Positions 23,360 to 63,855 of a stretch of DNA of 64,000 bases are shown piece after piece (within the stretch, counting starts at the first letter, position 1; each line of letters starts with the position of its first letter). The position numbers were made by a program, and so were the translations under genes. The notes under the pieces were generated by a model. The model did not search any database. It saw nothing but the letters and a program-made list of their open reading frames with translations, and was not told where the DNA came from. This DNA comes from an uncultured bacterium (lineage in GTDB: Bacteria; Patescibacteriota; Microgenomatia; Levybacterales; UBA12049): NCBI GenBank assembly GCA_963826535.1, contig CAWGXL010000010.1, positions 298,814-362,813 of the forward strand, read 5' to 3'.

Positions 23360-23408
23360 TTGTCATTCCCGCGCCTGCCCGCCTATGGAGGGTTTAGGGG
23401 AATGACAA
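23360..23408. repeat. Palindromic intergenic element, copy A (TTGTCATTCCC...GGGGAATGACAA)
   Basis: 10-bp perfect terminal inverted repeat around a GC-rich loop (gcgcctgcccgcctatggagggtttag). Lies between ileS and rodA. Confidence 0.6.
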
Positions 23409-23444
23409 AGCTTTGTTTAACATGAGTTAAACGACGATTCTTTC

Positions 23445-24521
23445 ATGGGAATAAAACTAAAAATCGATTTTTGGCTTCTCGCTCCAGTTTGCGTGCTCCT
23501 GCTTATCGGACTTACAACACTTTCTTCAATAAACCCTCTATTTCTTCGAAATCAAAGCTTTTCCCTTATTATTGCGATTATTATTTTTTTATTTTTAACT
23601 CAAATAGACTATAAAGTTTATAAAAATATAAAAATCCCGATTTATATTCTCTCAATAATAATGCTTTTTATAGTACTTCTAATAGGTCTAGAAAGTAGAG
23701 GAGCAGTCCGCTGGATTGAACTATTTGGAGTACGTATACAACTTTCCGAGATCTTCAAGCCAATTCTCTCCTTGGCTTTTGCAGCTTATATTGCAGATAA
23801 AAAACGCATAACATTCAAAACATTTCTTTCCATGATTATATTTTTAATTCCTGTCGCGGTTTTAATTTACCTTCAGCCGGATTTAGGGAATGCTTTAATT
23901 TATATCGGAGTTTTTTTTCTCACATTAATTATCATCGGACTTCCAATTGTTTGGTTTTTAATAGCTGTTTTGCCCGTAATATTAGTTTCTCCATTTTTCT
24001 GGAATATGCTTCATGATTACCAGCGGCAAAGAATTATTACATTTTTAAATCCCACAAATGACCCGCTCGGGACGTCATATAATAGCATCCAAGCTTTAAT
24101 TGCCGTCGGCTCAGGAATGTTCTTTGGAAAAGGGCTCGGAGAAAGCACGCAATCAGGATTACGATTTCTTCCCGAAAGGCATACGGATTTTATCTTCGCT
24201 ACGCTCTCAGAAGGAATGGGTTTTACCGGTGGGATTATTGTAATTCTCGCTTTCACTTTCCTTTTATATCGTATCTATAAAATTTTCGGAAGCGCGACTG
24301 GTCTATATGAAAAAACCTTTCTTGCCTGTGGCTTTTTTTTCTTTCTCATTCAATTTTTATTAAATATAGGCATGAATATTGGTATCCTACCGGTAGTTGG
24401 AGTTACTCTACCATTCGTTTCATTTGGCGGAAGTTCACTTGTAGCTAATTTTATCTTCTTGAGCATTATTTCTTCAATCAGCGTTTCACAGAAAAAAAGT
24501 TACGTGCTGGAAATTAAATGA
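23445..24521 (+). CDS. SEDS-family peptidoglycan glycosyltransferase (FtsW/RodA)
   Basis: Polytopic protein with GSGMFFGKGLGESTQSGLRFLPERHTDFIFATLSEGMGFTGG. Confidence 0.85.
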   Translation: MGIKLKIDFWLLAPVCVLLLIGLTTLSSINPLFLRNQSFSLIIAIIIFLFLTQIDYKVYKNIKIPIYILSIIMLFIVLLIGLESRGAVRWIELFGVRIQLSEIFKPILSLAFAAYIADKKRITFKTFLSMIIFLIPVAVLIYLQPDLGNALIYIGVFFLTLIIIGLPIVWFLIAVLPVILVSPFFWNMLHDYQRQRIITFLNPTNDPLGTSYNSIQALIAVGSGMFFGKGLGESTQSGLRFLPERHTDFIFATLSEGMGFTGGIIVILAFTFLLYRIYKIFGSATGLYEKTFLACGFFFFLIQFLLNIGMNIGILPVVGVTLPFVSFGGSSLVANFIFLSIISSISVSQKKSYVLEIK

Positions 24522-24550
24522 ATATTTTGGTATAATTTAATCTCAATAAT

Positions 24551-24931
24551 ATGGACTATGCAATTATAGAATCAGGAGGCAAGCAATATAAGGCTAGCAT
24601 TGGTGGAATATTAGATATTGATAGGTTGAATCTGGCTCCGGGAAATACACACTTATTTGAAAAAGTGCTGTTGTACACAGCAGGAGGTGTATGCAAAATT
24701 GGCCGCCCTACACTAAATGAAGTTTCGGTACAGGGAAAAGTATTAGAACATTTTAAGGGAGACAAAATCCGCGTCGCGAAATTTAAAGCCAAAGCCAGGT
24801 ACAGAAAAGTTCAGGGTCATAGACAATTGCTCACCAGAATACAAATCACTGAAATTTCAAACAATCAATCAAATGCCAAGTCAGAGAAGAAAGCCGCAGC
24901 TGCCACGGATGTTAAAAAAAGTAAAAAATAA
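24551..24931 (+). CDS. rplU: 50S ribosomal protein L21 (with C-terminal Lys/Ala-rich extension)
   Basis: MDYAIIESGGKQYKASIGGILDIDRL...KIRVAKFKAKARYRKVQGHRQLLTRIQITEI. Confidence 0.9.
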   Translation: MDYAIIESGGKQYKASIGGILDIDRLNLAPGNTHLFEKVLLYTAGGVCKIGRPTLNEVSVQGKVLEHFKGDKIRVAKFKAKARYRKVQGHRQLLTRIQITEISNNQSNAKSEKKAAAATDVKKSKK

Positions 24932-25041
24932 TTAAGAATTCTTATAGCTTTACCGATTAATACTTGACATCCGTGAAAAGCTATCGTATTATAAAAATAA
25001 ATTTTCACAATTCAATTTTAACTTTGAACTTTTAATTATAT

Positions 25042-25293
25042 ATGGCACATACAAAAGCACAAGGATCAGTAAAAGGCAATCGCGATTCTAGACCAAAATA
25101 CCTGGGGATAAAATTATATGGCGGAGAAAAAGCAATTCCGGGTAATATTCTGGTGCGTCAAAGGGGCAGCAAATTTAATGCCGGAAAAGGTGTATCAACT
25201 GGAAAAGACTTTACACTTTTCGCGACAGAAGCTGGAAAAGTAAGCTACATACAGCGGCTAGGTAAAAGAATAGTCCAAGTTATAAATGAATAA
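25042..25293 (+). CDS. rpmA: 50S ribosomal protein L27
   Basis: MAHTKAQGSVKGNRDSRPKYLGIKLYGGEKAIPGNILVRQRGSKFNAGKGV. Promoter TTGACA...TATTAT lies in the 110-bp gap after rplU. Confidence 0.95.
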   Translation: MAHTKAQGSVKGNRDSRPKYLGIKLYGGEKAIPGNILVRQRGSKFNAGKGVSTGKDFTLFATEAGKVSYIQRLGKRIVQVINE

Positions 25294-26110: not shown

Positions 26111-26114
26111 ATTA

Positions 26115-28982: not shown

Positions 28983-30023
28983 ATGACAATTCTCTTTCTG
29001 GCACGACTTTTCTATCCTCACATTGGCGGGGTAGAGAAGCACGTCTTAGAAGTAAGCAAAAGATTAGTACAACTGGGCCATAGGGTTATTGTAGTTACTG
29101 AAAACCATAAACCCCCCTTGACCCATTTAGTTAATAGGATAGAGGGGATTGAAATAATCAGAATTAACGCGGGTAAAGATGACATGTTCAAAAAATTTAG
29201 AATTTGGAAAAGCTTATGGCAACTAAGAACGATAATAAAAGAAGCTGACATAATCCATTGTCACGACGTATTCTTTTGGTACCTACCCTTTCGCTTCCTT
29301 TACCCCCGTAAACCTGTTTATACAACCTTTCATGGTTATGAAAGCTACCCGGTTTCCATGAAAGCAATCATAATAAGAAAAATTTCTGAAAAATTATCCT
29401 GGGGTAATATTTGCATTGGAGACTTTATAAAAAAATGGTATGGTACAAAGTCTGATTATGTTTCATACGGGGCAGTAGATAGTGTCATTGCGAGGAGGCA
29501 CGACCAAGCAATCCTCAAAAATGACAAAAAATATTCAGCCCTTTTTATCGGCAGACTTGACGAGCAGACTGGTATATTAACCTATGTAAAAGCTCTTGAA
29601 ATACTTAAGATAAAATATCCAAACTTTGAATTACTAGTCGTAGGCGATGGGGAATATAAACGCCTAATTGAAAGACAAGTAAAAGTTTTAGGCTTCCAAA
29701 AAAATCCTGAGAAATATTTAAGACAATCTCATTTTGCATTTGTTTCCCGTTATTTATCTATTCTTGAAGCAATTGCCGCAAAAAGATTGGTTTTTGCCGT
29801 GTACGATAATCCAATTAAAGAAGACTATTTAAAAATGACACCATTTGCCAAGTTTATTATTATTGAAAATGATCCTGAAAGACTTGCAGAAAAAGTTAAA
29901 TACTTTTTAACCCATCCCGAAAAAGAAAAGGATTTAGTGAATGATGCTTATGATTGGGTGAAAAAACAGTCATGGGACACTTTGGTAAAATTATATTTGT
30001 CTCTTTGGAATAAACCTCTTTAA
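28983..30023 (+). CDS. Glycosyltransferase (GT4-like, GT-B fold)
   Basis: N-terminal YPHIGGVEKHVLEVSKRL typical of GT4. 346 aa. First gene of the glycan locus. Confidence 0.65.
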   Translation: MTILFLARLFYPHIGGVEKHVLEVSKRLVQLGHRVIVVTENHKPPLTHLVNRIEGIEIIRINAGKDDMFKKFRIWKSLWQLRTIIKEADIIHCHDVFFWYLPFRFLYPRKPVYTTFHGYESYPVSMKAIIIRKISEKLSWGNICIGDFIKKWYGTKSDYVSYGAVDSVIARRHDQAILKNDKKYSALFIGRLDEQTGILTYVKALEILKIKYPNFELLVVGDGEYKRLIERQVKVLGFQKNPEKYLRQSHFAFVSRYLSILEAIAAKRLVFAVYDNPIKEDYLKMTPFAKFIIIENDPERLAEKVKYFLTHPEKEKDLVNDAYDWVKKQSWDTLVKLYLSLWNKPL

Positions 30024-31739
30024 CCGGATTATTAATGCAATTCCTAATACAGTTGCAGATAAAGCACTTATCCATTTTGCAATTCTACGTTCTAAAGAAT
30101 CCGTAAATATTACTTCTACTTTATGTAATCCTTTACCTAATTTAAAAATAATAACACCAGGATAATGTTTATTTTTGTAATTAATTTGTGTTTCTATATT
30201 ATCTACCAACACTTTCCAGCCAGGAAAATAATATGTATTTTCCTTAAGTTCAACTTTTGATTTTGCAGAGATGATATATTCATGATTCGTAATTAAATGT
30301 GATAATTCAACAATTTCAGCATTTCCAGACAAAATTTCAATATGCTTGTTGGGTATTTTACCAATCCACGGTTTATATTTATCTACCCAAATAGGCGTAA
30401 GTGCATTAACTTGCCCAATATAATCGTCAAAAACCATTTGATTTCTGAGAACGGCGTCCGCTGTTTGCGGCATCGCTTTTCTATTTCCCCAATTTAAAAT
30501 CGTGTAAGCAATTGTTATAAAACACAGTAAAATAAAGAATTTTTTATTAGTATAAGTTTTAATAACAATTGCCGCAATTACTCCGATCACGATAATTACC
30601 TGGATTGATAATCGCCACGAAAACTGAAAATTGTTAATAATAGGAATAATATCCCAAAGTGGTTTTGTAAAAGATTGCATCATTAAAAATAAAATGAAGA
30701 ATATTATTATAGAACTTGTTAACACTATTTTCGCTTTCCCATGAACTTTTTTCTTTAAAAGAATAAAAATACCTATAAAAACAACTAGCCATTGTGTATA
30801 TCCAATGCTCGTATAAATTTCACCCTTATTTCCCTGAAATAATAAACCAAATAGATTTGGTGGATAGAAAAAATCGCGGAAAGAATGAAAAGATATCACA
30901 ACCTCTGTTCCATAAGCAGTGTACTTGCTTTCTATAAGAACAGGTATCCAATAAAAAGCAGTCAAAAGTAAACCATTTATAAAAGCAAAAATCATATGTA
31001 ATAGTATCTTAATATTTTTTTTCTTGTATCTTAACCACACACTAAATCCATAAATAATAAGAAAAGGGAAAGAAGCTAATGAGGTTACCTGATGCGAAAG
31101 GATCAACAAAGCAAAAAGAATAGAAGTATAAATAAAAAAAATAGAATACCTGGTTTCTACAAAACGCTTGGTAGTTAAAAATAAAAAGGGCAGAATAGCC
31201 ATTGAAACTAATTCGGCAATACTAACTCGAAAATGCAAATCAATTAGATGATATGGGGCAAATAGATAAAAAACAGCAGCCGCAAATCCTGATTTATCTC
31301 CGAATTCATCCTTCATCCATAAATACATACCTATCCCTGAAAGAATAAAGGAAATGGCAATGAGTATTTTCGCACTTGTGATAAATGAAAAGCCCAAAAC
31401 ATGAATAATTGAGATAAGATAATGAGATAATAAAAATGTAAATATAAAATCCGGACAGCCATAACCTGAGCATTGTTTCTCGATCCAGGCGGGAATTAAT
31501 TGTCCCTGTTTAAGATTTTCAAAAAATTGCATTGCGAATTTTACATGAAAATTAAGATCACCGCTCTCATAAGAACCAATTCGCAAAATACTAACAAGCG
31601 GTAATAAAGAAATAATTATTAATAAAAATAGAAAATTAATTCTTTTTTTAGGATAAACTTTAGTGTATAGTAACAAGCCTGCAATAAGAATTGCTGAAAT
31701 TATAAGATTCACGACGATCATTCTATAAGGATCAAGCAT
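29991..31739 (-). CDS. Polytopic membrane protein, GT-C-like (YfhO/ArnT/PMT-like) glycosyltransferase candidate
   Basis: 582 aa with at least 12 predicted TM helices and a C-terminal soluble domain. No precise family motif recognised. Confidence 0.5.
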   Translation of the reverse strand: MLDPYRMIVVNLIISAILIAGLLLYTKVYPKKRINFLFLLIIISLLPLVSILRIGSYESGDLNFHVKFAMQFFENLKQGQLIPAWIEKQCSGYGCPDFIFTFLLSHYLISIIHVLGFSFITSAKILIAISFILSGIGMYLWMKDEFGDKSGFAAAVFYLFAPYHLIDLHFRVSIAELVSMAILPFLFLTTKRFVETRYSIFFIYTSILFALLILSHQVTSLASFPFLIIYGFSVWLRYKKKNIKILLHMIFAFINGLLLTAFYWIPVLIESKYTAYGTEVVISFHSFRDFFYPPNLFGLLFQGNKGEIYTSIGYTQWLVVFIGIFILLKKKVHGKAKIVLTSSIIIFFILFLMMQSFTKPLWDIIPIINNFQFSWRLSIQVIIVIGVIAAIVIKTYTNKKFFILLCFITIAYTILNWGNRKAMPQTADAVLRNQMVFDDYIGQVNALTPIWVDKYKPWIGKIPNKHIEILSGNAEIVELSHLITNHEYIISAKSKVELKENTYYFPGWKVLVDNIETQINYKNKHYPGVIIFKLGKGLHKVEVIFTDSLERRIAKWISALSATVLGIALIIRLKRFIPKRQI

Positions 31740-31775
31740 ACTGATATAATATACATCAGTGAACTAAACAGCAAC

Positions 31776-32225
31776 ATGAAAATTTATTTTCTTAAAAAAG
31801 TAATTTTTTATATACTTTTCGCTATATGGATTTTCCTTGCCATTTTTAGTCTGTTTTATAATGCCGGAAAAACAATTTCGGAAATGAATGAATGGGCTTA
31901 CTTATCCGATAGCGAAAAAAGGCTTAAAATTTTTGGGGATTTGCATAACTTTTTCATTTTAATAAAAGACAATACAGAAGAAAAGTCTAATATATTTATT
32001 CTTTCTAAAGACATAAAAACTCCTTACCTTAGCATATATTATTTATATCCTCGAACTATTACTACCACAGATGATAAAAGCAAATTCATAAAAACAGCCC
32101 TTGCTCAAAAACATTTATATTTAGCGGTATATAAACAGGTTATTAAACTTGAAAACTATGAAAGGGTCGCTTCTTTTTCCTCGAAAACGAGCTCTGATTT
32201 TGGTTATCTTTATAAAAGAAAATGA
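31776..32225 (+). CDS. Hypothetical membrane-anchored protein
   Basis: 149 aa with an N-terminal TM helix. Confidence 0.4.
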   Translation: MKIYFLKKVIFYILFAIWIFLAIFSLFYNAGKTISEMNEWAYLSDSEKRLKIFGDLHNFFILIKDNTEEKSNIFILSKDIKTPYLSIYYLYPRTITTTDDKSKFIKTALAQKHLYLAVYKQVIKLENYERVASFSSKTSSDFGYLYKRK

Positions 32226-33532
32226 ATATTATTATTACATTGATTACTATTCTATTTATAACAGCCGTTGGTTTTGCCATTATTCGTGGCTTTAATTTAA
32301 TTTCAAATAAGGACAAGTTATTGAGTATTGCTTGCTCATATGGATTAGGCGTAGGTCTAATTTCAATGCAGTTGTATGTCTTTTCACGATTAAACTTCCC
32401 CTGGCACAAAGAACTATTAATTTATCCTTGGCTTATTTTAGTAGGAGTTATTTTATTCAGAAGTAGAAATCGAATAAATTTTAAGCTACCTTTATTTCCA
32501 AAATTCACTAACTTACAAATTTTCTTACTTTGTGGAATATTAGTTGCTTGTAGTTACACCATTTTTGAGGCTTTAATTCGTCCTGTTACAGTTTGGGACG
32601 GATGGGCTATTTGGCTTCTTAAATCTAAGATATTTTTTCTTGATGGCACAATTGATCCTGAAATGCTTAATTATATAAAATCCGACTACCCATTAATAAT
32701 TAGTCTTTTAGGAACATTTATTTATATTATATTAGGTAGGGTAGATGATACCGCAGTACTTATTACATCTACCGCTTTCTATTTAGCTCTAGCATTATTA
32801 TTTTTGTCAGCTGTGAAAAAAAAGTTTGGTTTTACTTATGCACTGTTATTTACGTTTCTCTTAGTTACTACGCAAAATTTTGTCAGACATGGTGGTAGGC
32901 TCGAAGCTGGTCTGGCAGATTTAGCACTGGGATATTATGCTTTTGCCTGTTTCATTTTATTAATAATTTATCTGAAAACAAGTAGTGGAAAACTGTTATT
33001 ATTACTTAATATATTTTTAGGAATTACTACACTCATTAAATTTGAAGGTGTAACAATAACTCTGCTTTTATCATGTTTTATGTTTTATCATATTACTAAA
33101 AATAGACTATATAGTCATTTCATATTTTTTCTTATTTGGTTTATACCCTTTACGGATTGGCAGACATATAAAAAAATTCACCTTGCAAGTGTAAATTATT
33201 TTACCGCTCATAAATTTGAATTTTCTATATCCAAAACACTTAACGTTTTTTCGGGGACATTTAAAGAATTAATAAATGTAAAAAGCTGGAACATGCTTTG
33301 GATAATCTATTTTTATACACTTTTTATTTTTAAAATAACTAAAAATAAAGAGCTTATGATATTAAATACTATAATTCTTTTTCAATTTGCTGTATATATA
33401 ATAATTTACATATTTACCTCTGGTAACTCTCCTGAAAGCTCGATAGAAAGGTTATTAATTCATATTGCGCCTCTCGCTTTATATTCCGTAGCTATATTAT
33501 TTAATAACAATCAACCTGAAAAGTCCCGCTAA
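32222..33532 (+). CDS. Polytopic membrane protein (GT-C-like / O-antigen-polymerase-like)
   Basis: 436 aa, almost entirely hydrophobic helices. Start overlaps the upstream stop by 4 nt. Confidence 0.45.
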   Translation: MNIIITLITILFITAVGFAIIRGFNLISNKDKLLSIACSYGLGVGLISMQLYVFSRLNFPWHKELLIYPWLILVGVILFRSRNRINFKLPLFPKFTNLQIFLLCGILVACSYTIFEALIRPVTVWDGWAIWLLKSKIFFLDGTIDPEMLNYIKSDYPLIISLLGTFIYIILGRVDDTAVLITSTAFYLALALLFLSAVKKKFGFTYALLFTFLLVTTQNFVRHGGRLEAGLADLALGYYAFACFILLIIYLKTSSGKLLLLLNIFLGITTLIKFEGVTITLLLSCFMFYHITKNRLYSHFIFFLIWFIPFTDWQTYKKIHLASVNYFTAHKFEFSISKTLNVFSGTFKELINVKSWNMLWIIYFYTLFIFKITKNKELMILNTIILFQFAVYIIIYIFTSGNSPESSIERLLIHIAPLALYSVAILFNNNQPEKSR

Positions 33533-35369
33533 ATGATTTTAATATTCCTGGAATAGCAAATTTTTTTACAACAATCAGTTTTTTCATCCTCTTATTTTTT
33601 TTATTAAAATTAATATTCCTTTCTATCAATGTCTCTATTTTATCCGCATTTTCATAGTTTTCAACAATAAAGACCTTTTTAGTTTCATTCGTATAAGGCA
33701 ATTTGATATACATGGGATTTTTTAAGTAATAGGACGATGGTTTTATAGCGGATTCAATATAACTGTTTTTTATAATATCCCGCGTATCAATATCATACAC
33801 TTTACAATCAGTATCATTACTATTTTGAATCTTTTTATCAGGTTGGAATATGAGTATCAGATACTTTTTTTTATTTTCGTAAACTGAATAATTACTAAAT
33901 ATCCATTTTGTTACAAGTGGATTTCTTGAAAAATTAGGAATATCATCAAGACTTAAAGCGCTTATTGAATCTATACTCAATATAATATATTTAGGTGGAG
34001 ACCCACTTAGTTTTTCTACCGCTTTTTTCTCAACAATAGAACTGGAGTACTCATAAAATTGTAGAGGAAGTGTATTAAATGTTGTGCTATATATATTAAG
34101 AAGATAACTGTCATAAGGATAAACTAAAACATTCTGTGGATTATCTTTTATAAGAGACTCAAAATATTGAAAATCATACTTCGTAAAAGAATAATCTCCG
34201 GTTAATTTATAAATATCAAAAAATGATATATTTTCTGTAGCCAAAGCAATTGACAATTTAAAATATTTTATCGAGATATTAGAATAATAATTTTCTTTAA
34301 AAGGTATCAATATATAAAAAATCAAAAAAATAAATATAATAATTAATCTTAATTTCTCCCGTAATATAAAATAAAAAAGTATAAATAAAATAATTAGACT
34401 TGGATATATGCCCATAATAATATGATCTTCATCTGGCCTGATAAATGCTGACTTTAATTGAATTAATGCTACTAGAGTTAGAAAAATAAAAGTCTGCTTA
34501 ATATTTTTCTTTATTCGTGTTTTCCTAATTGCATAAATCAATAATAACGTTAGGGCTATAGGAAACAAAAATAAAATAGTACTTCGATTAAATGACAAGG
34601 GTAAATTCATAACATATTGATAATTTTTAATGGTATCAAGCGAATAAACTAAATAATTAAAACTACCACTAATAAGGAAACTAATTATTAATTCAATAAA
34701 TATAATCAATCCAATTTGAATTACACTAATAAAAATTAATTTTCTAAGTAGTCTTTTGTTATTTTTCTCGTGATAAGTAGTATAAATCTTGTATATAATA
34801 AAAAGAACGGATATCATCAAACACGTAACTAAAATATCAAAACTATACATACCAAAAATTGGAGGTAAAATGAAAATTGCTAAGTTTTTCAAAGTAGGCG
34901 TATTTTTTAGAGGATCAAAGCGTAAAAGAAGTAAGCTATAAAAAAAAGTGAGTAGAATTCTAAAAAGAGTATTGCTATCATATGCAATTAGACCTATAAA
35001 AAAAAAGAGGTAACAAGTAAGAATAATTTGCTCATTCCGGTCCTTTGTTATCAATTTAATGATAAAATAAAGTAAAATAACACAAAATACTGTTATAAGA
35101 ATTGGAGCGTAAAGTACGGAAATATATGAACTTTGCCCAAATATTAATGCAGGGATAGCATAAATAAATTGAAACAATGGACCATATGTAAATATAAAAT
35201 CTCGCCCTGCAATATAACCATGTAATAGTCTTTCAACATTATCTGTTTGCCATGAAAAATCAAGAGTATTAGTAAGCAAAATAACATTACTTATTTGGCC
35301 ACCCAGTAATAAAAGTTTTAAAAAAACAGAAAGTGTAATGATAAAGATTAATATAAAGCCGACAATCAT
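33501..35369 (-). CDS. Polytopic membrane protein (GT-C-like)
   Basis: 622 aa. N-terminal half polytopic, C-terminal roughly 250 aa soluble. Confidence 0.45.
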   Translation of the reverse strand: MIVGFILIFIITLSVFLKLLLLGGQISNVILLTNTLDFSWQTDNVERLLHGYIAGRDFIFTYGPLFQFIYAIPALIFGQSSYISVLYAPILITVFCVILLYFIIKLITKDRNEQIILTCYLFFFIGLIAYDSNTLFRILLTFFYSLLLLRFDPLKNTPTLKNLAIFILPPIFGMYSFDILVTCLMISVLFIIYKIYTTYHEKNNKRLLRKLIFISVIQIGLIIFIELIISFLISGSFNYLVYSLDTIKNYQYVMNLPLSFNRSTILFLFPIALTLLLIYAIRKTRIKKNIKQTFIFLTLVALIQLKSAFIRPDEDHIIMGIYPSLIILFILFYFILREKLRLIIIFIFLIFYILIPFKENYYSNISIKYFKLSIALATENISFFDIYKLTGDYSFTKYDFQYFESLIKDNPQNVLVYPYDSYLLNIYSTTFNTLPLQFYEYSSSIVEKKAVEKLSGSPPKYIILSIDSISALSLDDIPNFSRNPLVTKWIFSNYSVYENKKKYLILIFQPDKKIQNSNDTDCKVYDIDTRDIIKNSYIESAIKPSSYYLKNPMYIKLPYTNETKKVFIVENYENADKIETLIERNINFNKKNKRMKKLIVVKKFAIPGILKSFSGTFQVDCY

Positions 35370-35444
35370 AATTAATAATAATGGGGCAACTAAATGTAAC
35401 TTTACTGTTTACATTTTATAGTTTTTCTAATAAGATTGCCATAT

Positions 35445-36508
35445 ATGGAAAAAACACTAATCGTTACAGGTGGTTGTGGCTTCATAGGTACCAACATCTC
35501 ACTATTAGCAAAAAAAAAGGTTACTCCGTAACAGTTTTTGACTCACTTATTCGTCCGCACACCGAAGAAAATGCTGAAATACTTAAAAAAGCAAATATAC
35601 AGATAATTAGAGGAGACGTAAGAAACTTGCATGATATTGAAAGACTACCAAAAAAAGCCACTGGTATTATACATCTCGCTGCAAATCCGGGAATACCCTG
35701 GTCAATCAAATGGCCGTCATATGATTTTGCAGCCAACGCTCTAGGCACACTTAATATACTTGAATTTTCAAGATTAAATCATAAAATTCCTATTATTTTT
35801 GCTTCTACAAACAAAATATATTCGGAAGAAATAAACATAATTCCCGTTACCGAACTAAAATCCCGTTATATATGGAACTTTAATAAAATAAATAAGAAAT
35901 CCACAAGGAGTACGATTTTAGAAGGGATAACGAAAAAAGGTGTCAATGAAAATTTTCCAATGGATAGTTCTGGAAAATTTCCCCACAGTCCATATGGCGT
36001 ATCAAAAGCCACGGGAGATCTTTATTGTCAGGAATATTTTCATATTTATGGTGTACCTACAGTTATAAATCGAATGTCATGCGTTTACGGTTTATATCAG
36101 AAAGGAGTTGAGGATCAAGGCTGGCTTGATTGGTTTGTGCAGGCGAAAATAAACAATTTACCGCTTAACATTTACGGTGATGGTAAGCAGGTTAGAGATA
36201 GCGTTTTTGGTACAGATATAGCGGAATTGTATCTTTTACAATTGGAAAACATTCGTAAAGTCAAAGGTCAGGTATTTAATATCGGCGGAGGTCTAAAAAA
36301 TACAATAAGTCTTATTGAGACAATAGATTATTTGAATAGTAAAGGAGGAAAAAAACTAGATCTTACTTTCAAACCTTGGCGACCTGCTGACCAAAAAGTT
36401 TATATCACGGATATTTCCAAAATTAAGAAACATCTAGGTTGGGAGCCCAGGGTAAGTGTATCTAAAGGACTTGATCAAATTTGGGCACAATACATGAGGA
36501 AATACTAA
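35445..36508 (+). CDS. NAD-dependent epimerase/dehydratase (extended SDR), frameshifted in an A8 run
   Basis: ATG at 35445 gives MEKTLIVTGGCGFIGTNISLLAKKK (Rossmann GxxGxxG) and stops at 35529-35531. The downstream frame continues GYSVTVFDSLIRP...YGVSKATGDLYC (YxxxK). The frame break is in the A-run at 35510-35518. Confidence 0.7.
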
Positions 36509-37209
36509 TTTGATTTTTTTAATCCATATAAATACCACCTTAAATAAAAACGCAAATTTCTAAACAATCTAAACTTTGAAACACCTTTCTCTCGGTCTTT
36601 CCATATCGTTGGAATCTCTGCTATTTTTAAATTCTTCTTATATGCTTTAACAGTTAATTCCAAAGGTAATTCAAATCCCTCCTCACTTTCAATAATAATG
36701 TCTTTGAGTATTGATCTTTTAAAACACTTGAATGCGTTTGTAGCATCGTGTGTCGGTAATCCAGTGAGTAATCTCAAGCTCTTACAGGCAATTAAGGATA
36801 ATAGTCCCTTTATCATTGGCCCGCCAACCCGTTTCCCATGTCTGCTGTATCGAGACGCACATACTAGGTCAAAACCATTATTAATTTCTAAAACCATTTT
36901 ATCTATGTCCCTAGGATCGTCGGAAAGATCTGCCATCATGATAGTAATTATAGAAGCTTTGGTATTATTAAAGCCATACTTGAGAGCTTTCAACATGCCT
37001 TTTCCATCTTTCGTAAAAAGCACATTAATATTTTTTATTTTTGTTTCAAGTTTTTTTATCTCCTTTAATGTTGGATCGTTTTTGTCTTGTAACACAATTG
37101 TTATTACATGTTCGGTTTTGACATATTTATGAATTTGCTCTAATACTTTTTCAATATTGTTCTGCTCGTAATAGGTTGGTAGTATAATATCAAGAAGAGC
37201 TTGTGTCAT
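36505..37209 (-). CDS. GT2 glycosyltransferase, polyprenol-phosphate mannose/glucose synthase-like (Dpm1/Ppm1-like)
   Basis: ILPTYYEQNNIEKVLEQIHKYV...LSDDPRDI... 234 aa single GT-A domain. Confidence 0.75.
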   Translation of the reverse strand: MTQALLDIILPTYYEQNNIEKVLEQIHKYVKTEHVITIVLQDKNDPTLKEIKKLETKIKNINVLFTKDGKGMLKALKYGFNNTKASIITIMMADLSDDPRDIDKMVLEINNGFDLVCASRYSRHGKRVGGPMIKGLLSLIACKSLRLLTGLPTHDATNAFKCFKRSILKDIIIESEEGFELPLELTVKAYKKNLKIAEIPTIWKDREKGVSKFRLFRNLRFYLRWYLYGLKKSN

Positions 37210-37258
37210 AATGCAAATTATATGTTAGGCTGAGTAATAATTCAATGAAGTAATTACC

Positions 37259-39802
37259 ATGAAGATATCTTTTGTTACCACAATATTTAATGAGGAAAAA
37301 ACAATAGAGAAGTTTCTTGACTCACTATTTTCGCAAACCCAATTACCGGATGAAATTATTATTGTAGATGGGGGAAGCACTGACCATACAATCGCTAAGC
37401 TGGAAAATCACAAAGAAAAATTTTTACTTTTAATTAAAAAAGGCAATAGATCGGTCGGTAGAAATGTAGCAATTAAGCACGCTAAAGGTGATATAATTGT
37501 CTGTTCCGATGCCGGAAATATATTGGATAAAAAATGGTTAGAGAATATCACAAAGCCTTTTAAAGATAAAAATAATGATGTCGTTGCAGGTTTCTACAAA
37601 GGAAAAGCGGAAAATATTTTACAAAAATGTTTAATTCCTTATGCCCTTGTAATGCCCGATAAAGTCGACCCCAATAACTTCCTCCCTTCCGCCCGTTCAA
37701 TGGCCTTTAAGAAATCTATCTGGAAAAAAATCGGTGGATTCCCGGAAAAATATAGTCATAATGAGGATTATGTTTTCGCCAATCAACTTAAAAAAATAAA
37801 TGCAAGTATTTTTTTCGCCAAAGACGCGATTGTGTATTGGTTCCCTAGAAACACGTTCAATGAAGCGTTTAATATGTTTTACCGTTTTGCATTAGGCGAC
37901 ATTGAAGCAAAAATATTCCGCTCCAAAGTATTACTGCTTTTCGCGCGTTATTTTCTCGGATTATATTTAATTTTTTTATCAATTTTATATCAATCAGTCA
38001 TAGGCGAGGTTATAATTCTTAGTATTTTTATAATTTATCTACTTTGGGCAATTCAGAAAAACTATAGATATGTACTAGATATTCGCGCCCTTTACTTACT
38101 TCCTGCAATTCAACTTACTTCAGACGCTGCAGTCATATTTGGATCTGTAGTTGGTTTGTTAAAAATAATAATACAGTTTAATTATCTTACTTTTATAAAA
38201 CAAAACAAATTATTATTTGTTATTCTGACTATATATATTTCATTTCTAGTATTCACCTTAAAATGGGGGATACCCAATCAAAATCACCCATTCCCCTACC
38301 ATATGGATGAATGGCATCAACTGCAGGCAGTAGCAAATACTTTCAGATTTGGAACACCTAATACTGTAGGATCAGCCAATGGAACCATGTTCCATTTTCT
38401 CTTTTCCGGCTTTTACCTCCTACCCTTCACATTACTTCAAATCATAAATCCCTTTGAACTTCAAATCGATAATTTTCAGATGCGGGAAAGAATATTTGAA
38501 ATTTTTAGATTTCAAACAATAATTTTTGGATCATTTTCAATATTAATTATCAATAAAATTGCGCAGTTGATTAATGCGTCAAAAAAATTGGTGATAACCT
38601 TGTTTACATTTTCTCCAATTTGGTTGATACTTAGCGGCTATTTTAAATATGATATTGCTCTCATTTTTTGGATTTTATTTTCATTATATTATATCGTTAA
38701 ATTTTCTAAATTACCTAGCAATCGAAATTTCATAATTGCCGCAATACCGGCAAGTTTAGCTATTGCAATAAAAGTAAGCGCTATTCCGCTATTACCGATC
38801 TATATTTTTTCATTTTTCCTATTTAGTCCATCTATTAGAAAAAACATCAAATTTTTATTTATAGGTGTTATTATTTTTATCTTTACACTTCTTTTGTTTG
38901 GCTTTCCTGACACATTATTTGGGAAAGGGAATTTATTACTATACCTTTTCGAGAACATTGTTCAAGGCCCGCAATCGTCATCAAATTTTATTTTAGGAAT
39001 GTCCCCATACACATTTCTGATCCTAAGACATTACCCTGTAATTTTTGGTCATGGTTTAATTTTCCTGTTTATCATTTCATGTATATTTTGGATCTATATA
39101 TGGTCAAAGAATGGATTTAGTAAATATAAACATGTGCTGTTTCTTTTCTTTTGTTTTTTAATTTTTTTTATTAGTATCCTGCCCCTAAAAATTTACGCAG
39201 GTGGAAACAGAAGTCTTGTTCTTTTACCATTTTTTACACTGCTTGTTTCTTTAACCTGGGGCGAATTCAAAATATGGCCAAGGCTAAAGCTCTTGGTATT
39301 AGTTATGTTAATTATCGCTCTAAGTTTACAGATATATGAATCGTCATTATGGGCAGCAATTAAGATTGGCAACAGCCCCCAAGAAGTATCATCGGAATGG
39401 ATACAAAAAAATATACCCAAAAATTCTACAATCGGTATAGAGAATGTCCCAATATATCAAAATATCCCGGATATAATTCAAAAAGAATTTTACTTTGATC
39501 AATATAATATAAATCAAGAAAAAAGATATAAATATCAAATAATCGATGCCGAGTCCGGATCATTACCACAATATATTGTAATTACTTCCGGGGATATTGA
39601 AAAAAAACTTGTTAAAGAATCACCAAAAAAGGACTTGTTAAATAGACTTAGTAAAGAAAAATATATAATATTGATTTCCTTTTCGCCCATTGCAATAAAA
39701 TATTTACCTTTAATAAATGATGTAGATTACTATTTCAGCTGGCTGGGAGCCCCTCCACTAACAACTACCATTTATGTATATCCAATCCTTGTGAAACAGT
39801 AA
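37259..39802 (+). CDS. GT2 glycosyltransferase domain fused to a large polytopic membrane domain
   Basis: N-terminus MKISFVTTIFNEEKTIEKFLDSLFSQTQLPDEIIIVDGGSTDHT (GT-A with DxD), followed by about 600 aa of TM helices. Confidence 0.7.
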   Translation: MKISFVTTIFNEEKTIEKFLDSLFSQTQLPDEIIIVDGGSTDHTIAKLENHKEKFLLLIKKGNRSVGRNVAIKHAKGDIIVCSDAGNILDKKWLENITKPFKDKNNDVVAGFYKGKAENILQKCLIPYALVMPDKVDPNNFLPSARSMAFKKSIWKKIGGFPEKYSHNEDYVFANQLKKINASIFFAKDAIVYWFPRNTFNEAFNMFYRFALGDIEAKIFRSKVLLLFARYFLGLYLIFLSILYQSVIGEVIILSIFIIYLLWAIQKNYRYVLDIRALYLLPAIQLTSDAAVIFGSVVGLLKIIIQFNYLTFIKQNKLLFVILTIYISFLVFTLKWGIPNQNHPFPYHMDEWHQLQAVANTFRFGTPNTVGSANGTMFHFLFSGFYLLPFTLLQIINPFELQIDNFQMRERIFEIFRFQTIIFGSFSILIINKIAQLINASKKLVITLFTFSPIWLILSGYFKYDIALIFWILFSLYYIVKFSKLPSNRNFIIAAIPASLAIAIKVSAIPLLPIYIFSFFLFSPSIRKNIKFLFIGVIIFIFTLLLFGFPDTLFGKGNLLLYLFENIVQGPQSSSNFILGMSPYTFLILRHYPVIFGHGLIFLFIISCIFWIYIWSKNGFSKYKHVLFLFFCFLIFFISILPLKIYAGGNRSLVLLPFFTLLVSLTWGEFKIWPRLKLLVLVMLIIALSLQIYESSLWAAIKIGNSPQEVSSEWIQKNIPKNSTIGIENVPIYQNIPDIIQKEFYFDQYNINQEKRYKYQIIDAESGSLPQYIVITSGDIEKKLVKESPKKDLLNRLSKEKYIILISFSPIAIKYLPLINDVDYYFSWLGAPPLTTTIYVYPILVKQ

Positions 39803-39883
39803 AAAGTTAATTACCCAAACAATGTTCCTCCTGAGTGAGGGGGAGTAGTATAAAACAACTCAACTGGTATAATATTAATAAAT

Positions 39884-41116: not shown

Positions 41117-41933
41117 TTCAAAAATTTACGACAAAGATTATTATCTGCATTCATGTTTGGGTTTTGAAGAATTTAAAAAATTTAAAGGTAAAAGGGTCCA
41201 TCTTCTAGGTGAAAAGTTTCTAGATCGAATTTCTATAATGCCTGGAATGAAAGTCCTAGACATTGGCTGCGGTAGAGGAGATCTGGCAATTGAATGTGCA
41301 AGAAGAGGAGCAAAAGCAACAGGTATAGATTACTCGGAAGACGGAATAGAAATTGCAAAGAGCTCATTGAAAAAGCAAAAATTGAATATTCAGAAAAATG
41401 TAAGTTTCTTTAAAATGGATTCAAAGAAACTGGAATTTGAAATCAATTCCTTTGATATAATTACATCTTATGACGTGTTTGAACATCTTTATAAAGATGA
41501 ACTGGAAATAGTAATGAATGAAATCTCCCGGGTTTTAAAGCCGAAAGGAATTCTATTAGTTCATACAGAAACTAATAAAATCTATTTAGATTTCACTCAT
41601 CATATTTGGTCTTACCCTTTAGATCAATTATTAATAAAAATTAACAAATTAATAACAAAAAAAGAATATCCCGGTTTACCGAAAGACCCACGGAACGAAC
41701 TTCATAAAAAGCAACATGTAAATGAACCAACCTACTTTTATCTAAGAAATCTTTTTATACGGCATTTATTTTCTGGCAAAATAATATCGCTTATTCCTAA
41801 GAAGCAAATATTTAGTTGGAAAGACAAAATCCATAATATACTTATTTCCCTTTATCCTATTTCTGGTTTCTTTCCTTTTCATCTTCTTTTTGCACATGAT
41901 TATATTTGCATTATGAAAAACAGTAAAAAATAA
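41103..41933 (+). CDS. Class I SAM-dependent methyltransferase
   Basis: Motif I VLDIGCGRGDLAIECARRGAKATGIDYS. Confidence 0.75.
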   Translation: MKSVDSKIYDKDYYLHSCLGFEEFKKFKGKRVHLLGEKFLDRISIMPGMKVLDIGCGRGDLAIECARRGAKATGIDYSEDGIEIAKSSLKKQKLNIQKNVSFFKMDSKKLEFEINSFDIITSYDVFEHLYKDELEIVMNEISRVLKPKGILLVHTETNKIYLDFTHHIWSYPLDQLLIKINKLITKKEYPGLPKDPRNELHKKQHVNEPTYFYLRNLFIRHLFSGKIISLIPKKQIFSWKDKIHNILISLYPISGFFPFHLLFAHDYICIMKNSKK

Positions 41934-59840: not shown

Positions 59841-60459
59841 ATGAGAAAATTATTAAGCATTTGTCTAGTTATAATTATTATATTCGGTGGCATTTTACTT
59901 GGAGTTACGATTGCTCAAAAAGCCAAACACAGAGAGATAATTAAAGACAAACCTCAAACCCTCTCAACTCAAACCAAAGTTACACCAACCGCGGTTGCAA
60001 CTTTAACAATATTACCCGAAATACCTAGTCAACTTTCAATCCCATCTATTAATGTAAATGCGGACATAGAGCAGGTCGGTCTTGATGCACAAGGAAAAAT
60101 GGACGTACCCAAAACACATATCACTGTAGGTTGGTACTCATTGGGATTTAGACCGGGGCAGAAAGGGAATGCTGTGCTCGCTGGACATTTAGACCATCCC
60201 AGCGGGTCACCGGCAGTATTTTGGAATTTGCCTAAACTCAAAGCCGGTGACAAAATAATTATCACTGATTCAAATAGAAACTCTTACACATTTTCAGTCA
60301 CACATACGGAAAAATATCCACACGAACCAATTTCCCTTAATCGAGGTTTTTGGCAACTCGGATCAGGCTGGATTGAATCTGATCACTTGTGAAGGCTCCT
60401 GGAATAGCGTAACTGAAAACTATTCTCATAGGACAGTAGTCTATACCAAAATGGATTAA
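59841..60459 (+). CDS. Sortase (class D/E-like transpeptidase), frameshifted in a T5 run
   Basis: TM anchor, then LAGHLDHP (catalytic His). The ORF stops at 60392. The +1 frame continues GNSDQAGLNLITCEGSWNSVTENYSHRTVVYTKMD (TLxTC Cys and conserved Arg) to 60459. Dropping one T of the TTTTT near 60345 restores the frame. Confidence 0.65.
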
Positions 60460-60471: not shown

Positions 60472-60524
60472 TATTCCCTCTCATTTTAGGTGCGGAGCCA
60501 CGGCAAGCCCGCCTGTTATGACAA
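60472..60524. repeat. Palindromic intergenic element, copy D (minus orientation: TTGTCAT...GAGGGAATAA)
   Basis: The reverse complement begins TTGTCATaacaggcgggcttgcc...gagagggaataa. It shares the termini and the GC-rich gcccgcc core with copy A. Confidence 0.45.
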
Positions 60525-60630
60525 GAGCGGAGAGAGTTAGGGTGAAGTTAAATTAAGCATGCTATTGCCTGCCGAAATAATCATTAGGGTTTACACAGCT
60601 CATCATTTTAATATAAAATAAATGTGCCAA

Positions 60631-60993
60631 ATGAATAAAAAAATCCTGATCGCAGAAGACGACGCGGCAATCCTGGAAGTAATAAAAATTATTTTAGAAG
60701 GAGAAGGTTACGCAATTATCTCAACCGATGATAAAGAAACGATCTTCTCACTGATTACGGAGCACAGCCCCGGCTTGATTTTGCTTGATATTTGGCTTTC
60801 CGGGCATGACGGAGGCAAAATAGCAAAAAATCTAAAAACTAAAGAAGAAACACAACACATTCCTGTAATCCTGATTTCTGCCAATAACGAAACTGCCAAA
60901 ATCACCAAAGAATCAGGTGCTGACGATTATCTCCTCAAACCCTTTGATATCGATGATTTATTAAAAATTGTTAAAAAATACCACCAAAATTAA
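60631..60993 (+). CDS. Single-domain CheY-like response regulator
   Basis: KKILIAEDDAAILEVI...LILLDIWLSGHDGGKIAKNLK...ILISAN...KPFDIDDL. The track start at 60622 (MCQM) is probably 3 codons too early. Confidence 0.85.
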   Translation: MNKKILIAEDDAAILEVIKIILEGEGYAIISTDDKETIFSLITEHSPGLILLDIWLSGHDGGKIAKNLKTKEETQHIPVILISANNETAKITKESGADDYLLKPFDIDDLLKIVKKYHQN

Positions 60994-60994
60994 C

Positions 60995-62335
60995 CTAAGC
61001 TTCAACCCCTAACTCACTTAATAGATAAAAAGACCCGGTAATAACTATTTTGGTTTTATCTTTTGAATTTAATAAATCTGCAAAAGCCATTTTTGGATTT
61101 GTTTTAATTCGATAATTTGTGAATCCGATTTGCGAAAGAGTACTGGTAATTAATTTGGGTTTTATTGATTCATGAAACCAATCATGTGTATAAATTTTAA
61201 ATGAGGTAATCATAATACTTTTAGCCAACGGAGCAATTATTTGCAATAATGGTTTAATTTCTTTTGTACTCTTAAAAGCAATTAAAAAATTAAATTTGTA
61301 TTTAGGATACAAATGCGCAATTGCTTGAATAAAAGCTTTCATTTTTTGTTCATTATGTGCTGCATCAAAAATAACCATTTTTTTACTTATACGGTATATA
61401 CTTAATCGACCAAAAAAATCTGCTTTTATTAAAGCTTGACGAAGAAGATTTTCGTCAATAACAAAACCATCACGCTTGGACAGAACACTAAGCGCAGCCA
61501 ATGCTAAACTGCAATTTTCTGCCTGAAATGCTCCTATTAATCCCAGAGTTAGTTTTAGCCAATGATTCCCAAAAAAATTAAAAGTAAATATTGTTTTATC
61601 TTTAAATTCTTTTACATCTTTAAAATTAACCCTCTCCCGAATAACAATTGTTTTTGCCATTTTTAATTTCGCGGTATTTGTCAATATCAACTGCGCTTCA
61701 GTTTTTTGCCCGGTAGTTATAACAACTGCATTATTAGTAATTATCCCGGCCTTTTGTTTCGCTATAGCAATAATGCCCTTCCCCAAAATCTCCATATGAT
61801 CCAATCCAAGTTTAGTTATAATGCAAATCTTATCATCGCGATCCACAACGTTTGTAGCATCCATTAGACCACCAATTCCTGTTTCTATCACTGCATAATT
61901 TACATTTTCTTTCCAAAAATAATAAAAAGCTAAAGCCGTAAGAATCTCAAAATATGTAGGAGAACCAAACTCGGTTTCACGCATCTTTTCAATAAATGGA
62001 ATGAGCTGATTTAAATACTTAACAAACTGATTTTTCCGGATAAATCTATTATTTATACGGATCCGCTCTCTAATATCATTAATATGAGGTGAAATAACAA
62101 GTCCGGTACTCTTTCCCTGAGAAGCCAATATAACACTCAGAAGATAAGCAGTAGAACTTTTCCCCGAAGTTCCTGCTATATGTATTACTTTCAATTTATT
62201 CTGAGGATTCCCTAAAAATTGCAATAAATATTTAGTCCGCCTAACCCCAACACCACCCTGAAAAAGCCTCCTAGGATTTTCGGGAATATGAGCAGATAAA
62301 TAACTCAGCCCTTCTGTGAAATTCTCAATCTTCAT
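60995..62335 (-). CDS. folC: Folylpolyglutamate synthase/dihydrofolate synthase (Mur ligase family)
   Basis: P-loop KVIHIAGTSGKSSTAYLL. Mur ligase middle and C-terminal domains. Its stop lies 1 nt from the RR stop (convergent). Confidence 0.8.
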   Translation of the reverse strand: MKIENFTEGLSYLSAHIPENPRRLFQGGVGVRRTKYLLQFLGNPQNKLKVIHIAGTSGKSSTAYLLSVILASQGKSTGLVISPHINDIRERIRINNRFIRKNQFVKYLNQLIPFIEKMRETEFGSPTYFEILTALAFYYFWKENVNYAVIETGIGGLMDATNVVDRDDKICIITKLGLDHMEILGKGIIAIAKQKAGIITNNAVVITTGQKTEAQLILTNTAKLKMAKTIVIRERVNFKDVKEFKDKTIFTFNFFGNHWLKLTLGLIGAFQAENCSLALAALSVLSKRDGFVIDENLLRQALIKADFFGRLSIYRISKKMVIFDAAHNEQKMKAFIQAIAHLYPKYKFNFLIAFKSTKEIKPLLQIIAPLAKSIMITSFKIYTHDWFHESIKPKLITSTLSQIGFTNYRIKTNPKMAFADLLNSKDKTKIVITGSFYLLSELGVEA

Positions 62336-62550
62336 TTTATTTTCTTATTTTATTTCGCACGCACACCTTTCAATTGAATCTGATTATTGAAAACGTTGCA
62401 GCTCACGAAAGCATTCACATTCATCCATACGTGGAATTATATATTTTAGATCGTAAATATTCAATTAGACCCAAGCCAACCGAAAGGTTGCTAAAAACCC
62501 TAAAATATGATTAACTAATCACAACCTGTATTTTAATTTGCAAACATAAA

Positions 62551-63003
62551 ATGGAAAATAATACTTCAGTAATGCACAATTTTAACGATAAAAATTCAAA
62601 AAACCCATTCTCTTTGAAATATGTCATAGTGCTTGTTGTCATAATTGGCCTCGGATTTGGCTCAGGCTTTATTTTATCTAAAATTTCTCCAAACCTGATT
62701 CAAGATAATGCCTTACCATCGCCAGTTGGAAAAAACGCAATAGAAAAAGGGAAAACTTACGGATCCAATGATACAAGTACTTTCAAAGACAGCACTGAGG
62801 GGGTCTTAAAAGAAGGAGGAATAGAAGGCGAAGGACAATACCATTTAGTACGTCCCGGAGGAGATAGTCAAAACGTCTATGTTACATCTTCGCTTGTGGA
62901 TTTATCACTTTTTTTAAACAAGAAAATTAAAGTCTGGGGTGAAACTCAAACAGCCCAAAAAGCCGGCTGGCTCATGGATGTAGGAAGGGTTGAAGTGCTT
63001 TAA
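62551..63003 (+). CDS. Hypothetical membrane-anchored protein
   Basis: 150 aa with an N-terminal TM helix [20 protein letters not shown] and a soluble C-terminal domain. Confidence 0.4.
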
Positions 63004-63009
63004 TTAGTT

Positions 63010-63693
63010 ATGATTAAGCTTGATAATGTCTCAAAAGTATATAAGACTGGGACAGCCGCATTAACAGACTTAACATTCTCAATTGATAAAGGGGAATTTG
63101 TTTTCCTTGTTGGCCCATCAGGTTCAGGAAAAACAACTCTTTTTCGTTTGCTTATTAGAGATACTTTGCCATCAAAAGGTATGATACATATCAACGAATG
63201 GGAATTAAGCAAATTATCCAAAAAAAAAGTCCCGCACTTGCGTAAAAAAATAGGCGTTGTATTCCAAGACCTAAAACTTCTCAAAGACAGGACTGTATAC
63301 GAGAATATTTTATTTCCCCTCGAAGTAACTAATACGTCAAATGCAGCTGCAAAACAAAAAGTCGACAAAATCCTCGAAGAAGTAGGAATTACCGAACACA
63401 AAAATAAATTTCCTCTCCAGCTCTCCGGTGGGGAGTTACAACGTGTTGCAATTGCCCGTGCTTTAGTTTTTAATCCAGACATTGTACTTGCAGATGAGCC
63501 TACAGGCAACCTCGATATGACAACTTCCTGGGAAATACTCAGGCTACTTCAAGACATAAATAAAACTGGTACCACAATTATCATGGCAACCCACAATACT
63601 GATATAATAAATAGTCTGCTAAAACGTGTAATAACACTGGAAAAAGGAAAAGTTATAAAAGATGAAAGTAACCGTTCAAAAAAAGTTAAATGA
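63010..63693 (+). CDS. ftsE: Cell-division ABC ATPase FtsE
   Basis: Walker [20 protein letters not shown] signature [15 protein letters not shown]. Walker [13 protein letters not shown]. Confidence 0.9.
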
Positions 63694-63754
63694 AAATTAA
63701 TAATTATCTGATGAGTGAGAACAATAAACTATCCCGCAGCAAGCTGACGGGTTA

Positions 63755-63855
63755 TTGTCATTCCGAGCGACCAACGGGAGTCGAGGAATCTCATACCACA
63801 ATGTTACTAAGTGACATGAGATCCCTCCACGCGCTTCGCTTAGTCGGGATGACAG
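63755..63855. repeat. Palindromic intergenic element, copy C (TTGTCATTCC...GGGATGACA), about 100 bp imperfect inverted repeat between ftsE and ftsX
   Basis: Head tgtcattccgagcga and tail (reverse complement) tgtcatcccgactaagcga. It fills most of the unusual 215-bp ftsE-ftsX spacer. The track ORF 63690-63911 that covers it is judged spurious. Confidence 0.5.

Follow-up and report, generated by a model that had tools for sequence, protein, structure and literature searches.

GC-rich palindromes in a 64 kb stretch of a Levybacterales genome: probable decayed members of the CGTC/TGTC-tagged REP superfamily

What are the GC-rich palindromes scattered through a 64 kb stretch of contig CAWGXL010000010.1, from an uncultured bacterium of the Patescibacteriota (Levybacterales), and how did they come to lie there? 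A preliminary description of this whole stretch (hereafter the window, with a GC content of approximately 36%) listed four intergenic copies, A to D, with inverted termini based on the 9-mer TGTCATTCC, and compared them to repetitive extragenic palindromes (REPs), to miniature inverted-repeat transposable elements (MITEs) or to a family of structured RNAs. The analysis presented here indicates that the elements are very probably members of the CGTC/TGTC-tagged superfamily of REPs, namely tagged hairpins and head-to-head dimers of these, possibly spread by a nuclease of the Ssn type and present in the window as decayed relics. Comparison at the sequence level bears out their family identity, dimer architecture, mobility within the lineage and decay within the window.

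Exact occurrences of TGTCATTCC in the window numbered four (23361+, 23399-, 45920+ and 63756+), compared to 0.60 expected. When one mismatch was allowed the 9-mer was not enriched (18 versus 14), the signal thus residing in the combined signature and not in the 9-mer alone. For the combined unit pattern (TGTCATYCC-N18-48-GGRAT) five matches were found versus 0.04 expected, a number reached by none of 100 shuffled sequences, and these correspond to copy A (on both strands), copy B and the left (+) and right (-) units of copy D. A structural scan for units gave six matches versus 1.85 expected, the four with a preceding T possessing GC-rich stems; a generic scan of the window for GTC followed by any stem was not above chance (36 versus 25 expected). 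Tagged units were found at four loci in the 64 kb of the window and at zero to five loci per approximately 20 kb in relatives. The interiors of the elements do differ and copy C is indeed unrelated, but chance resemblance among unrelated GC-rich hairpins is practically untenable in view of this excess of matches and of the full-length homologues of A and D in relatives, and is refuted for A, B and D.

The module common to these copies can be read as a tagged hairpin, GTC-ATYSC..GSRAT-C, written out as (T)GTC-[ATTCC..GGAAT]-C. An unpaired TGTC tag was found directly 5’ of the stem in A (both strands), B, D-left, D-right and a further copy, E, which had previously gone unreported. All stems in the window begin AT..AT, with six Watson-Crick pairs in A, seven in B, and five plus G.A/A.G in D and E, and the loops are approximately 14-43 nt, with about 20-43 nt enclosed by the terminal perfect stem. 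The 3’ tail is CTT in B and CTC in D-left, D-right and E, with A having a G on both strands; B, D and E thus keep both the GTC 5’ of the palindrome and the C immediately 3’ of it, and A has lost the C. Copy D belongs to a subfamily (GAGCG..CGAGG) with tandem G.A/A.G, and the ends of the spacer between its two units (CTCAT..ATGAG) are complementary. Copy B ends in GGGGAATC, without GACA, and is a single unit with a 7-bp stem and not a pair of terminal inverted repeats. The terminal inverted repeats of 7-10 bp said to be shared by all four copies are confined to A and D. Copies A, B and D were recovered in place. Copy C was rejected, as it has only TGTCATAAC and GGGAATA and was not matched by any pattern or covariance model; its Smith-Waterman similarity to A, B and D was no better than that of shuffled sequences (p 0.03-0.7). 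An E-value-mode search with Rfam at C and D returned noise only, far below gathering scores.

The CGTC-tagged REP superfamily was defined in 2013 by Di Nocera, De Gregorio and Rocco (PMC3733652). Its units possess an unpaired CGTC tag, often replaced by TGTC and in some cases by CCTC, a stem of 8-9 bp that opens with A-T and T-A, a loop of 4-5 nt and a 3-nt tail that begins with C (consensus CCA). They occur mostly as head-to-head dimers, with intragenic copies and dimers nested in palindromes also described, and the class includes dRS3 of Neisseria (CGTC-1) and RPE-4 and RPE-6 of Rickettsia, with no dedicated transposase known in 2013 (PMC3733652).

The breadth of the family was examined with a strict dimer pattern (TGTCATTCC-N8-30-GGAATC-N40-70-GGRATGACA), searched in GTDB with one genome per species. 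At least 120 loci were found, compared to our own chance estimate of about six for the whole collection. Among the listed matches were Acidobacteriota, Pseudomonadota, Nitrospirota, Planctomycetota, Chloroflexota, Bacteroidota, Verrucomicrobiota, Elusimicrobiota, Armatimonadota, Gemmatimonadota, Omnitrophota and others, along with five lineages of the Candidate Phyla Radiation (CPR), including Parcubacteria, Saccharibacteria, Magasanikbacteria and Portnoybacteria. Stem pairing was then assessed in 131 dimers picked by their end sequences alone, which keeps the test from being circular. The third interior stem pair was Watson-Crick in 87% of these dimers versus 36% in permutations, with interior pairs 1 and 2 being either Watson-Crick or the tandem G.A/A.G of the GAGCG..CGAGG subfamily. 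The right end carried a matching GGRATC in 108 of the 131, identifying these as true inverted dimers. Among 216 units, lengths spanned 20-64 nt, 24 nt being the commonest value, and units with long loops are frequent in the family. This end-anchored test replaced the covariation count of a covariance model, R1, built from 37 canonical units, that count being circular because the training units had been chosen for perfect stems. In the window, R1 placed D-left and D-right at ranks 1 and 2 (14.7 and 11.4 bits).

The elements were compared in the FtsE and IleS neighbourhoods of relatives (protein identity 77-88%). In the ileS-rodA spacer, L164 possesses an intact canonical head-to-head dimer of approximately 117 bp (5603-5718; TTGTCATTCCCGCGAACGCGGGAATCCAG..AT-rich..CTAGATTCCCCTGTCCAGGGGAATGACAA), L165 and L166 having no element at this site. 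Alignment of A with the L164 dimer revealed that the outer ~14 nt and ~13 nt are kept and the middle is deleted, which identifies A as a collapsed dimer. A dimer of the L164 type, including the AT-rich centre, was found at another locus in L039 (12994-13110), where the spacers of L040 and L041 are 4-12 nt, and metagenome contigs yielded 12 more A-type dimers.

The ftsE-ftsX spacer is likewise lineage-specific: the ftsE stop and ftsX start overlap by 4 nt, as ATGA, in three relatives (L039, L040 and L043), with L041 possessing a different, GC-rich spacer of approximately 57 nt. The separation of these two genes had been ascribed to copy C, a mistaken label, but the fourth copy (D) does lie between them. 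Copy D is homologous, including the start of its spacer (CTCATACCACA), to a dimer between unrelated genes in L165 (4446-4566). Target-site duplications, for which the preliminary description had suggested a search, were not found at any copy in the window, nor at 14 homologous dimers, and single units also stand alone (B, E and L040 11631). The existence of filled, empty and decayed orthologous sites, along with homologues at non-orthologous loci, shows past mobility of these elements. The dispersed REP/MITE-like family first proposed is upheld, in the form of TGTC-tagged units and head-to-head dimers.

Additional features were observed in these regions. The ftsE-ftsX spacers of the window (63731-63751) and L041 (~10695-10740) have in common a small hairpin motif, CCGC..CTGACGG, which is not part of the REP dimer. 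Some way out on either side of D lie the two members of a 9/10 direct repeat, CCGCWGCAAG (63733-63742 and 63862-63871), which do not adjoin its termini and are borderline by a rough estimate (p about 0.05). In L041, a GCAATGACA-type head-to-head dimer (8050-8160) lies within a called open reading frame (ORF; 7209-9488, -) of the folC/folP region; folC and folP are called there as one fused ORF of 759 aa and are separate overlapping genes in L039. The fused ORF may be due to read-through across the element.

The copies in the window are decayed, with long irregular loops, weak hairpins for single units and, in A, loss of the 3’ C. Folding of each copy gave mixed results. Copies A and D folded far better than shuffled sequences: A had a z of -3.75, and D forms a hairpin of approximately 100 nt, as RNA at -39 and -47 kcal/mol (z -3.4 on the + strand and -5.6 on the - strand). 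When folded as single-stranded DNA (ssDNA), A and the complete D dimer were likewise more stable than shuffles. The stability of the B hairpin was no better than that of shuffles, and C gave a z of only -1.4. Full 8-bp stems are found in the homologous copies of L039, L164 and metagenome loci.

Copy E differs in location, being in frame within the ORF of a GT4 glycosyltransferase (28983-30023), where it encodes the 12 residues SVIARRHDQAIL in the linker between two Pfam domains (residues 14-152 and 173-324). The glycosyltransferase ortholog of L164 was found to carry a unit of the same type in another reading frame (10734-10772, LSLRGAKRRSNL), and a second in-frame unit of 22 residues (10307-10370, VIPARRFEEASTLGVNAGIQ) that is absent in the window and L165. 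The linker of the L165 ortholog is equally long with no recognisable unit.

A second palindromic repeat, ACTCAYGTTACGCA..TGCGTAACRTGAGT, was observed in connection with the dimers, occurring once without a REP (locus F) and elsewhere enclosing A and many metagenome dimers. The inverted repeat around A was absent from the preliminary description. At locus F, the palindrome (ACTCACGTTACGCA..TGCGTAAAGTTAGC) has the exact outer-arm consensus at 18146-18159 and its partner arm at 18194-18207, with a fold weakly better than shuffles (z -1.6). The ACTCAYGTTACGCA and TGCGTAACRTGAGT arms bracket dimer copies in L173, L177, L171, L167 and L175, and are absent around the dimer copies of L039, L164 and L172. 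As the arms surround A and many metagenome dimers, the dimers are often housed within the loop of another, independent palindrome, which suggests that they may insert into the loop of the ACTCAYGTTACGCA..TGCGTAACRTGAGT palindrome. Nesting of a dimer in a palindrome has likewise been reported for Halothiobacillus (PMC3733652).

With regard to the agent of spread, a candidate enzyme has been described in Neisseria. The sequence NTS (CGTCATTCCCGCGMAVGCGGGAATCYRG) contains the dRS3 repeat and has been generalised to ‘Ssn-related motifs’ (SRMs) by Chenal et al. 2025 (PMC11893778). SsnA, a stand-alone GIY-YIG nuclease of 94 aa, binds and cuts NTS as ssDNA only; cleavage depends on the GTC, the three bases that precede the palindrome, and binding on the C that follows it (PMC11893778). 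In L150 (Candidatus Portnoybacteria), an ORF for a 92-aa GIY-YIG protein (3536-3814; Pfam 1e-15) was found with D-type head-to-head dimers on both sides, and in L179 (Daviesbacteria, Microgenomates) a 90-aa GIY-YIG gene (5001-5273) is flanked by units. These two cases indicate that the repeat-nuclease association of other phyla holds in CPR bacteria. Homologues of the L150 protein, in many cases present on numerous contigs, were identified in Parcubacteria, Portnoybacteria, Daviesbacteria, Ignavibacteria and Poribacteria. Separately, the Ssn-like GIY-YIG proteins P0313, P0304, P0270 and P0284 of CPR bacteria were each observed with identical sequence on 16-68 contigs, as would fit genes that are multi-copy or have been spreading recently.

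A mechanism may be proposed from these observations. The basic module consists of an unpaired 5’ (T/C)GTC, a stem of ATTCC../..GGAAT or ATTGC../..GCAAT and a 3’ C, and two inverted modules with their tags outside make up a head-to-head dimer behaving as a small non-autonomous mobile element. Whenever the DNA becomes single-stranded (replication, repair or transformation) each unit could fold, and a stand-alone Ssn-type GIY-YIG nuclease of approximately 90 aa would bind the folded unit and nick the strand several nucleotides 5’ of it, as the literature and the two CPR genomes above suggest. Such a nuclease, its own gene flanked by units, or another enzyme would be the likely agent of spread or maintenance. 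As the copies in the window are decayed and the window has no nuclease gene, they are best read as relics, probably with passive effects only, which would be the keeping apart of ftsE and ftsX and the addition of 12 residues to the glycosyltransferase linker.

Several results weigh against membership of this superfamily and against a link to the nuclease. Searches for a GIY-YIG gene were negative in the window (using a regular expression, phmmer, and Pfam on small ORFs), in close relatives (L039-L043, approximately 99 kb) and in a further ~105 kb (L164-L178), and such a gene lies within 8 kb in only 4 of the 120 listed dimer loci. The published role of Ssn is cleavage of transforming ssDNA (PMC11893778) and not mobilisation of repeats. 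The published SRM motif (HGTCWYN(0-2)YYVSBRHN(0-5)WNVSBRGN(0-2)RNCYNB) has no match in the window, with 0.04 expected. The R1 E-values for D are marginal (0.1 and 0.8), and the long-loop units A and B were not recovered by this model. Finally, B, D-left and D-right, folded individually as ssDNA, did not exceed shuffled sequences in stability. Across 184 kb of sequence from relatives and metagenome loci, the SRM motif did give 12 matches, of which 11 are true REP units, and canonical matching units are present in L039, L164 and metagenome loci. The motif failed to detect 77 of the 120 listed dimer loci, and likewise the units directly beside the GIY-YIG genes of L150 and L179. As a detector of the family this regular expression was rejected, being too narrow for the window copies and the GAGCG..CGAGG subfamily.

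A bolder proposal is that TGTC-tagged REP dimers of Patescibacteria are currently mobile, moved in trans by a small Ssn-type GIY-YIG nuclease with a preference for the ACTCAYGTTACGCA..TGCGTAACRTGAGT loop, and occasionally inserted in frame into genes; this we regard as doubtful. If true, the long-missing ‘transposase’ of CGTC REPs would be a GIY-YIG enzyme with a new transposition chemistry, and a link to DNA uptake would arise in epibiotic, competence-dependent bacteria.

Of the other explanations, the one that survives best is that the hairpins act mainly as RNA elements, transcribed within operons, that make upstream mRNA more stable, reduce read-through or adjust the expression ratios of ftsE to ftsX and ileS to rodA, for which the probability is low. 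Transcription of A and D would be expected, as the genes on either side of each run in the same direction, the RNA fold of D is strong, and RNA-level action has been argued for many REPs (PMC3733652). The D fold is nonetheless better on the antisense strand, B is situated in a divergent promoter spacer and E within coding sequence. Terminator-like tails are absent at A, B and D, promoter-like matches are at chance level, and Rfam identified only a tRNA-Val in the whole window at the gathering threshold. Moreover, the elements are missing at orthologous sites of close relatives, so that any RNA role would be dispensable. An RNA element would in any case cover a possible side effect and not the origin of the elements. 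The structured-RNA family initially suggested thus finds no backing, in view also of the published partner enzyme of the class acting on ssDNA (PMC11893778).

Movement of the elements as GTAG-type REPs or REPINs by a RAYT (Y1, IS200-like) transposase would fit their architecture, as tagged hairpins with inverted doublets that form a long hairpin and leave no target duplication, but it is very improbable. The tag is TGTC and not GTAG, no Y1_Tnp domain or other transposase was found among the small ORFs of the window and no RAYT in the loci of relatives, no RAYT gene has been reported with flanking CGTC units (PMC3733652), and the genes seen flanked by TGTC units in CPR bacteria are GIY-YIG genes. 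There is still less reason to regard the elements as conventional MITEs moved by a DDE transposase that recognises TGTCATTCC terminal inverted repeats. The inverted termini of A and D and the presence/absence polymorphism of the dimers would suit such elements, but this transposase too is missing among the small ORFs, target-site duplications are lacking, single units occur alone, and the ‘terminal inverted repeat’ is itself a tagged hairpin with covarying stems.

Coordinates of the elements and of the genes around them are given in Table 1. Gene names were checked against NCBIfam, which confirmed those previously assigned, and the nearest named relatives of IleS, at 64-70% identity, were Patescibacteria group, Candidatus Levybacteria and CPR3, which places the bacterium in the CPR, probably close to Microgenomates.

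Table 1. Palindromic elements of the window and neighbouring genes
Feature	Position	Strand	Description
Copy A	23360-23408		Collapsed head-to-head REP dimer, TTGTCATTCCCGCG..AGGGGAATGACAA; perfect 11-bp arms; ileS-rodA spacer
Copy B	45920-45978	+	Single unit, TGTC-ATTCCCC..(43-nt loop)..GGGGAAT-C; spacer between divergent CRP-like gene (-) and histidine kinase gene (+)
Copy D	63755-63855		Head-to-head REP dimer; left unit 63756-63790 (+), right unit 63820-63854 (-)
Copy E	29483-29516	+	Unit, TGTC-ATTGCGAGGAGGCACGACCAAGCAAT-CCTC; 7.9 bits with R1
Copy C (non-member)	60472-60524		GC-rich stretch in sortase/response regulator spacer
Outer inverted repeat enclosing A	23341-23427		Arms ACTCACCCTACTCA (23341-23354) and TGTTTAACATGAGT (23414-23427)
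Locus F	18144-18209		Outer palindrome without REP unit, TAACTCACGTTACGCA-N34-TGCGTAAAGTTAGCTA; spacer upstream of flavodoxin gene
ftsE-ftsX spacer	63694-63907	+	214 nt, contains D; lineage-specific
ileS	20309-23338		NCBIfam
rodA	23445-24521		NCBIfam
CRP-like regulator gene	45083-45808	-	NCBIfam
Histidine kinase gene	45994-47100	+	NCBIfam
Class F sortase gene	59841-60392		NCBIfam
Receiver-only response regulator gene	60622-60993		NCBIfam
folC	60995-62335	-	NCBIfam
ftsE	63010-63693		NCBIfam
ftsX	start at 63908

Other features of the window were also observed. A low-GC block at approximately 30000-44000 (27-33% versus ~37-39% elsewhere in the window) holds genes for a glycosyltransferase and a membrane PTPS-related protein. 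The block may represent a cell-surface glycan cluster that was acquired horizontally. Beside the gene for ribosomal protein L19, ORFs for a Phd/YefM-type antitoxin and a YraN/UPF0102 PD-(D/E)XK nuclease-like protein were found (11269-11634 and 12216-12581), unrelated to the repeats. A perfect GC-rich palindrome, CCTGCCTGCCGGCAGGCAGG, lies at 44279-44300, adjoining an AT-rich terminator-like hairpin. In the Daviesbacteria locus L179, one REP unit (about 6850-6885) has an identical palindrome as its loop. A scan of viral contigs with TGTCATTCC-N15-45-GGAATGACA recovered mostly an unrelated prophage/IS-like palindrome of 37 nt, only L008 being of the NTS type. This palindrome (TGTCATTCCAGTAATATRCAATCAAAAAGGAATGACA) has conserved flanks in many IMG/VR prophage contigs (L001-L038, such as L002 4818-4854); it is unrelated to the REP family, and its 9-nt termini are alike by chance.

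For annotation, identification of the family accounts for GC-rich palindromes and odd spacers such as that of the split ftsE-ftsX pair, and for spurious or extended ORFs in CPR genomes, as in the in-frame SVIARRHDQAIL, LSLRGAKRRSNL and VIPA..AGIQ peptides and possibly the L041 folC-folP fusion. A small natural data set on how this class of repeat spreads is provided by the palindrome nesting and by the orthologous sites of close relatives in their filled, empty and decayed states. What is new is the host lineage and the local variants, the kind of element (2013) and its partner enzyme (2025) being already published; the documented host range of CGTC/TGTC REPs and GIY-YIG partners is hereby extended to Patescibacteria.

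Among the known systems close to the window elements is the CGTC superfamily. Shared features are the unpaired CGTC/TGTC tag, the A-T/T-A opening of the stem, the 3’ tail from C, head-to-head dimers with spacers of 20-100 bp whose ends are often complementary, in-frame intragenic copies and palindrome nesting. The window copies differ in having stems of 5-7 Watson-Crick pairs and loops of about 14-43 nt as opposed to 8-9 bp and 4-5 nt, although canonical forms do occur in close relatives of the window genome. Further differences are the large subfamily with tandem G.A/A.G stem mismatches and the host, Patescibacteria being outside the five phyla listed in 2013 (PMC3733652). NTS and Ssn are resembled in the core (GTCATTCC..GGAATC(Y)), in the GTC and 3’ C kept in B, D and E, and in the stand-alone GIY-YIG genes of approximately 90 aa flanked by units in L150 and L179. 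They are set apart by the window having no ssn-like gene and copies that do not fit the published degenerate motif; the role shown for Ssn, restriction of transforming ssDNA, is that in Neisseria. The REPIN-RAYT system has in common with these elements tagged hairpins, inverted doublets forming one long hairpin, the absence of target duplication and singlets as remnants of dimers; its tag (GTAG and not TGTC) and enzyme class (Y1 HUH transposase and not GIY-YIG) are different. The Rickettsia palindromic elements belong to another host phylum and, in the case of RPE-1, measure approximately 100-150 bp as opposed to single units of 30-60 nt; they nevertheless find a parallel in E and the two L164 units, which contribute in-frame residues to surface loops or linkers of a glycosyltransferase.

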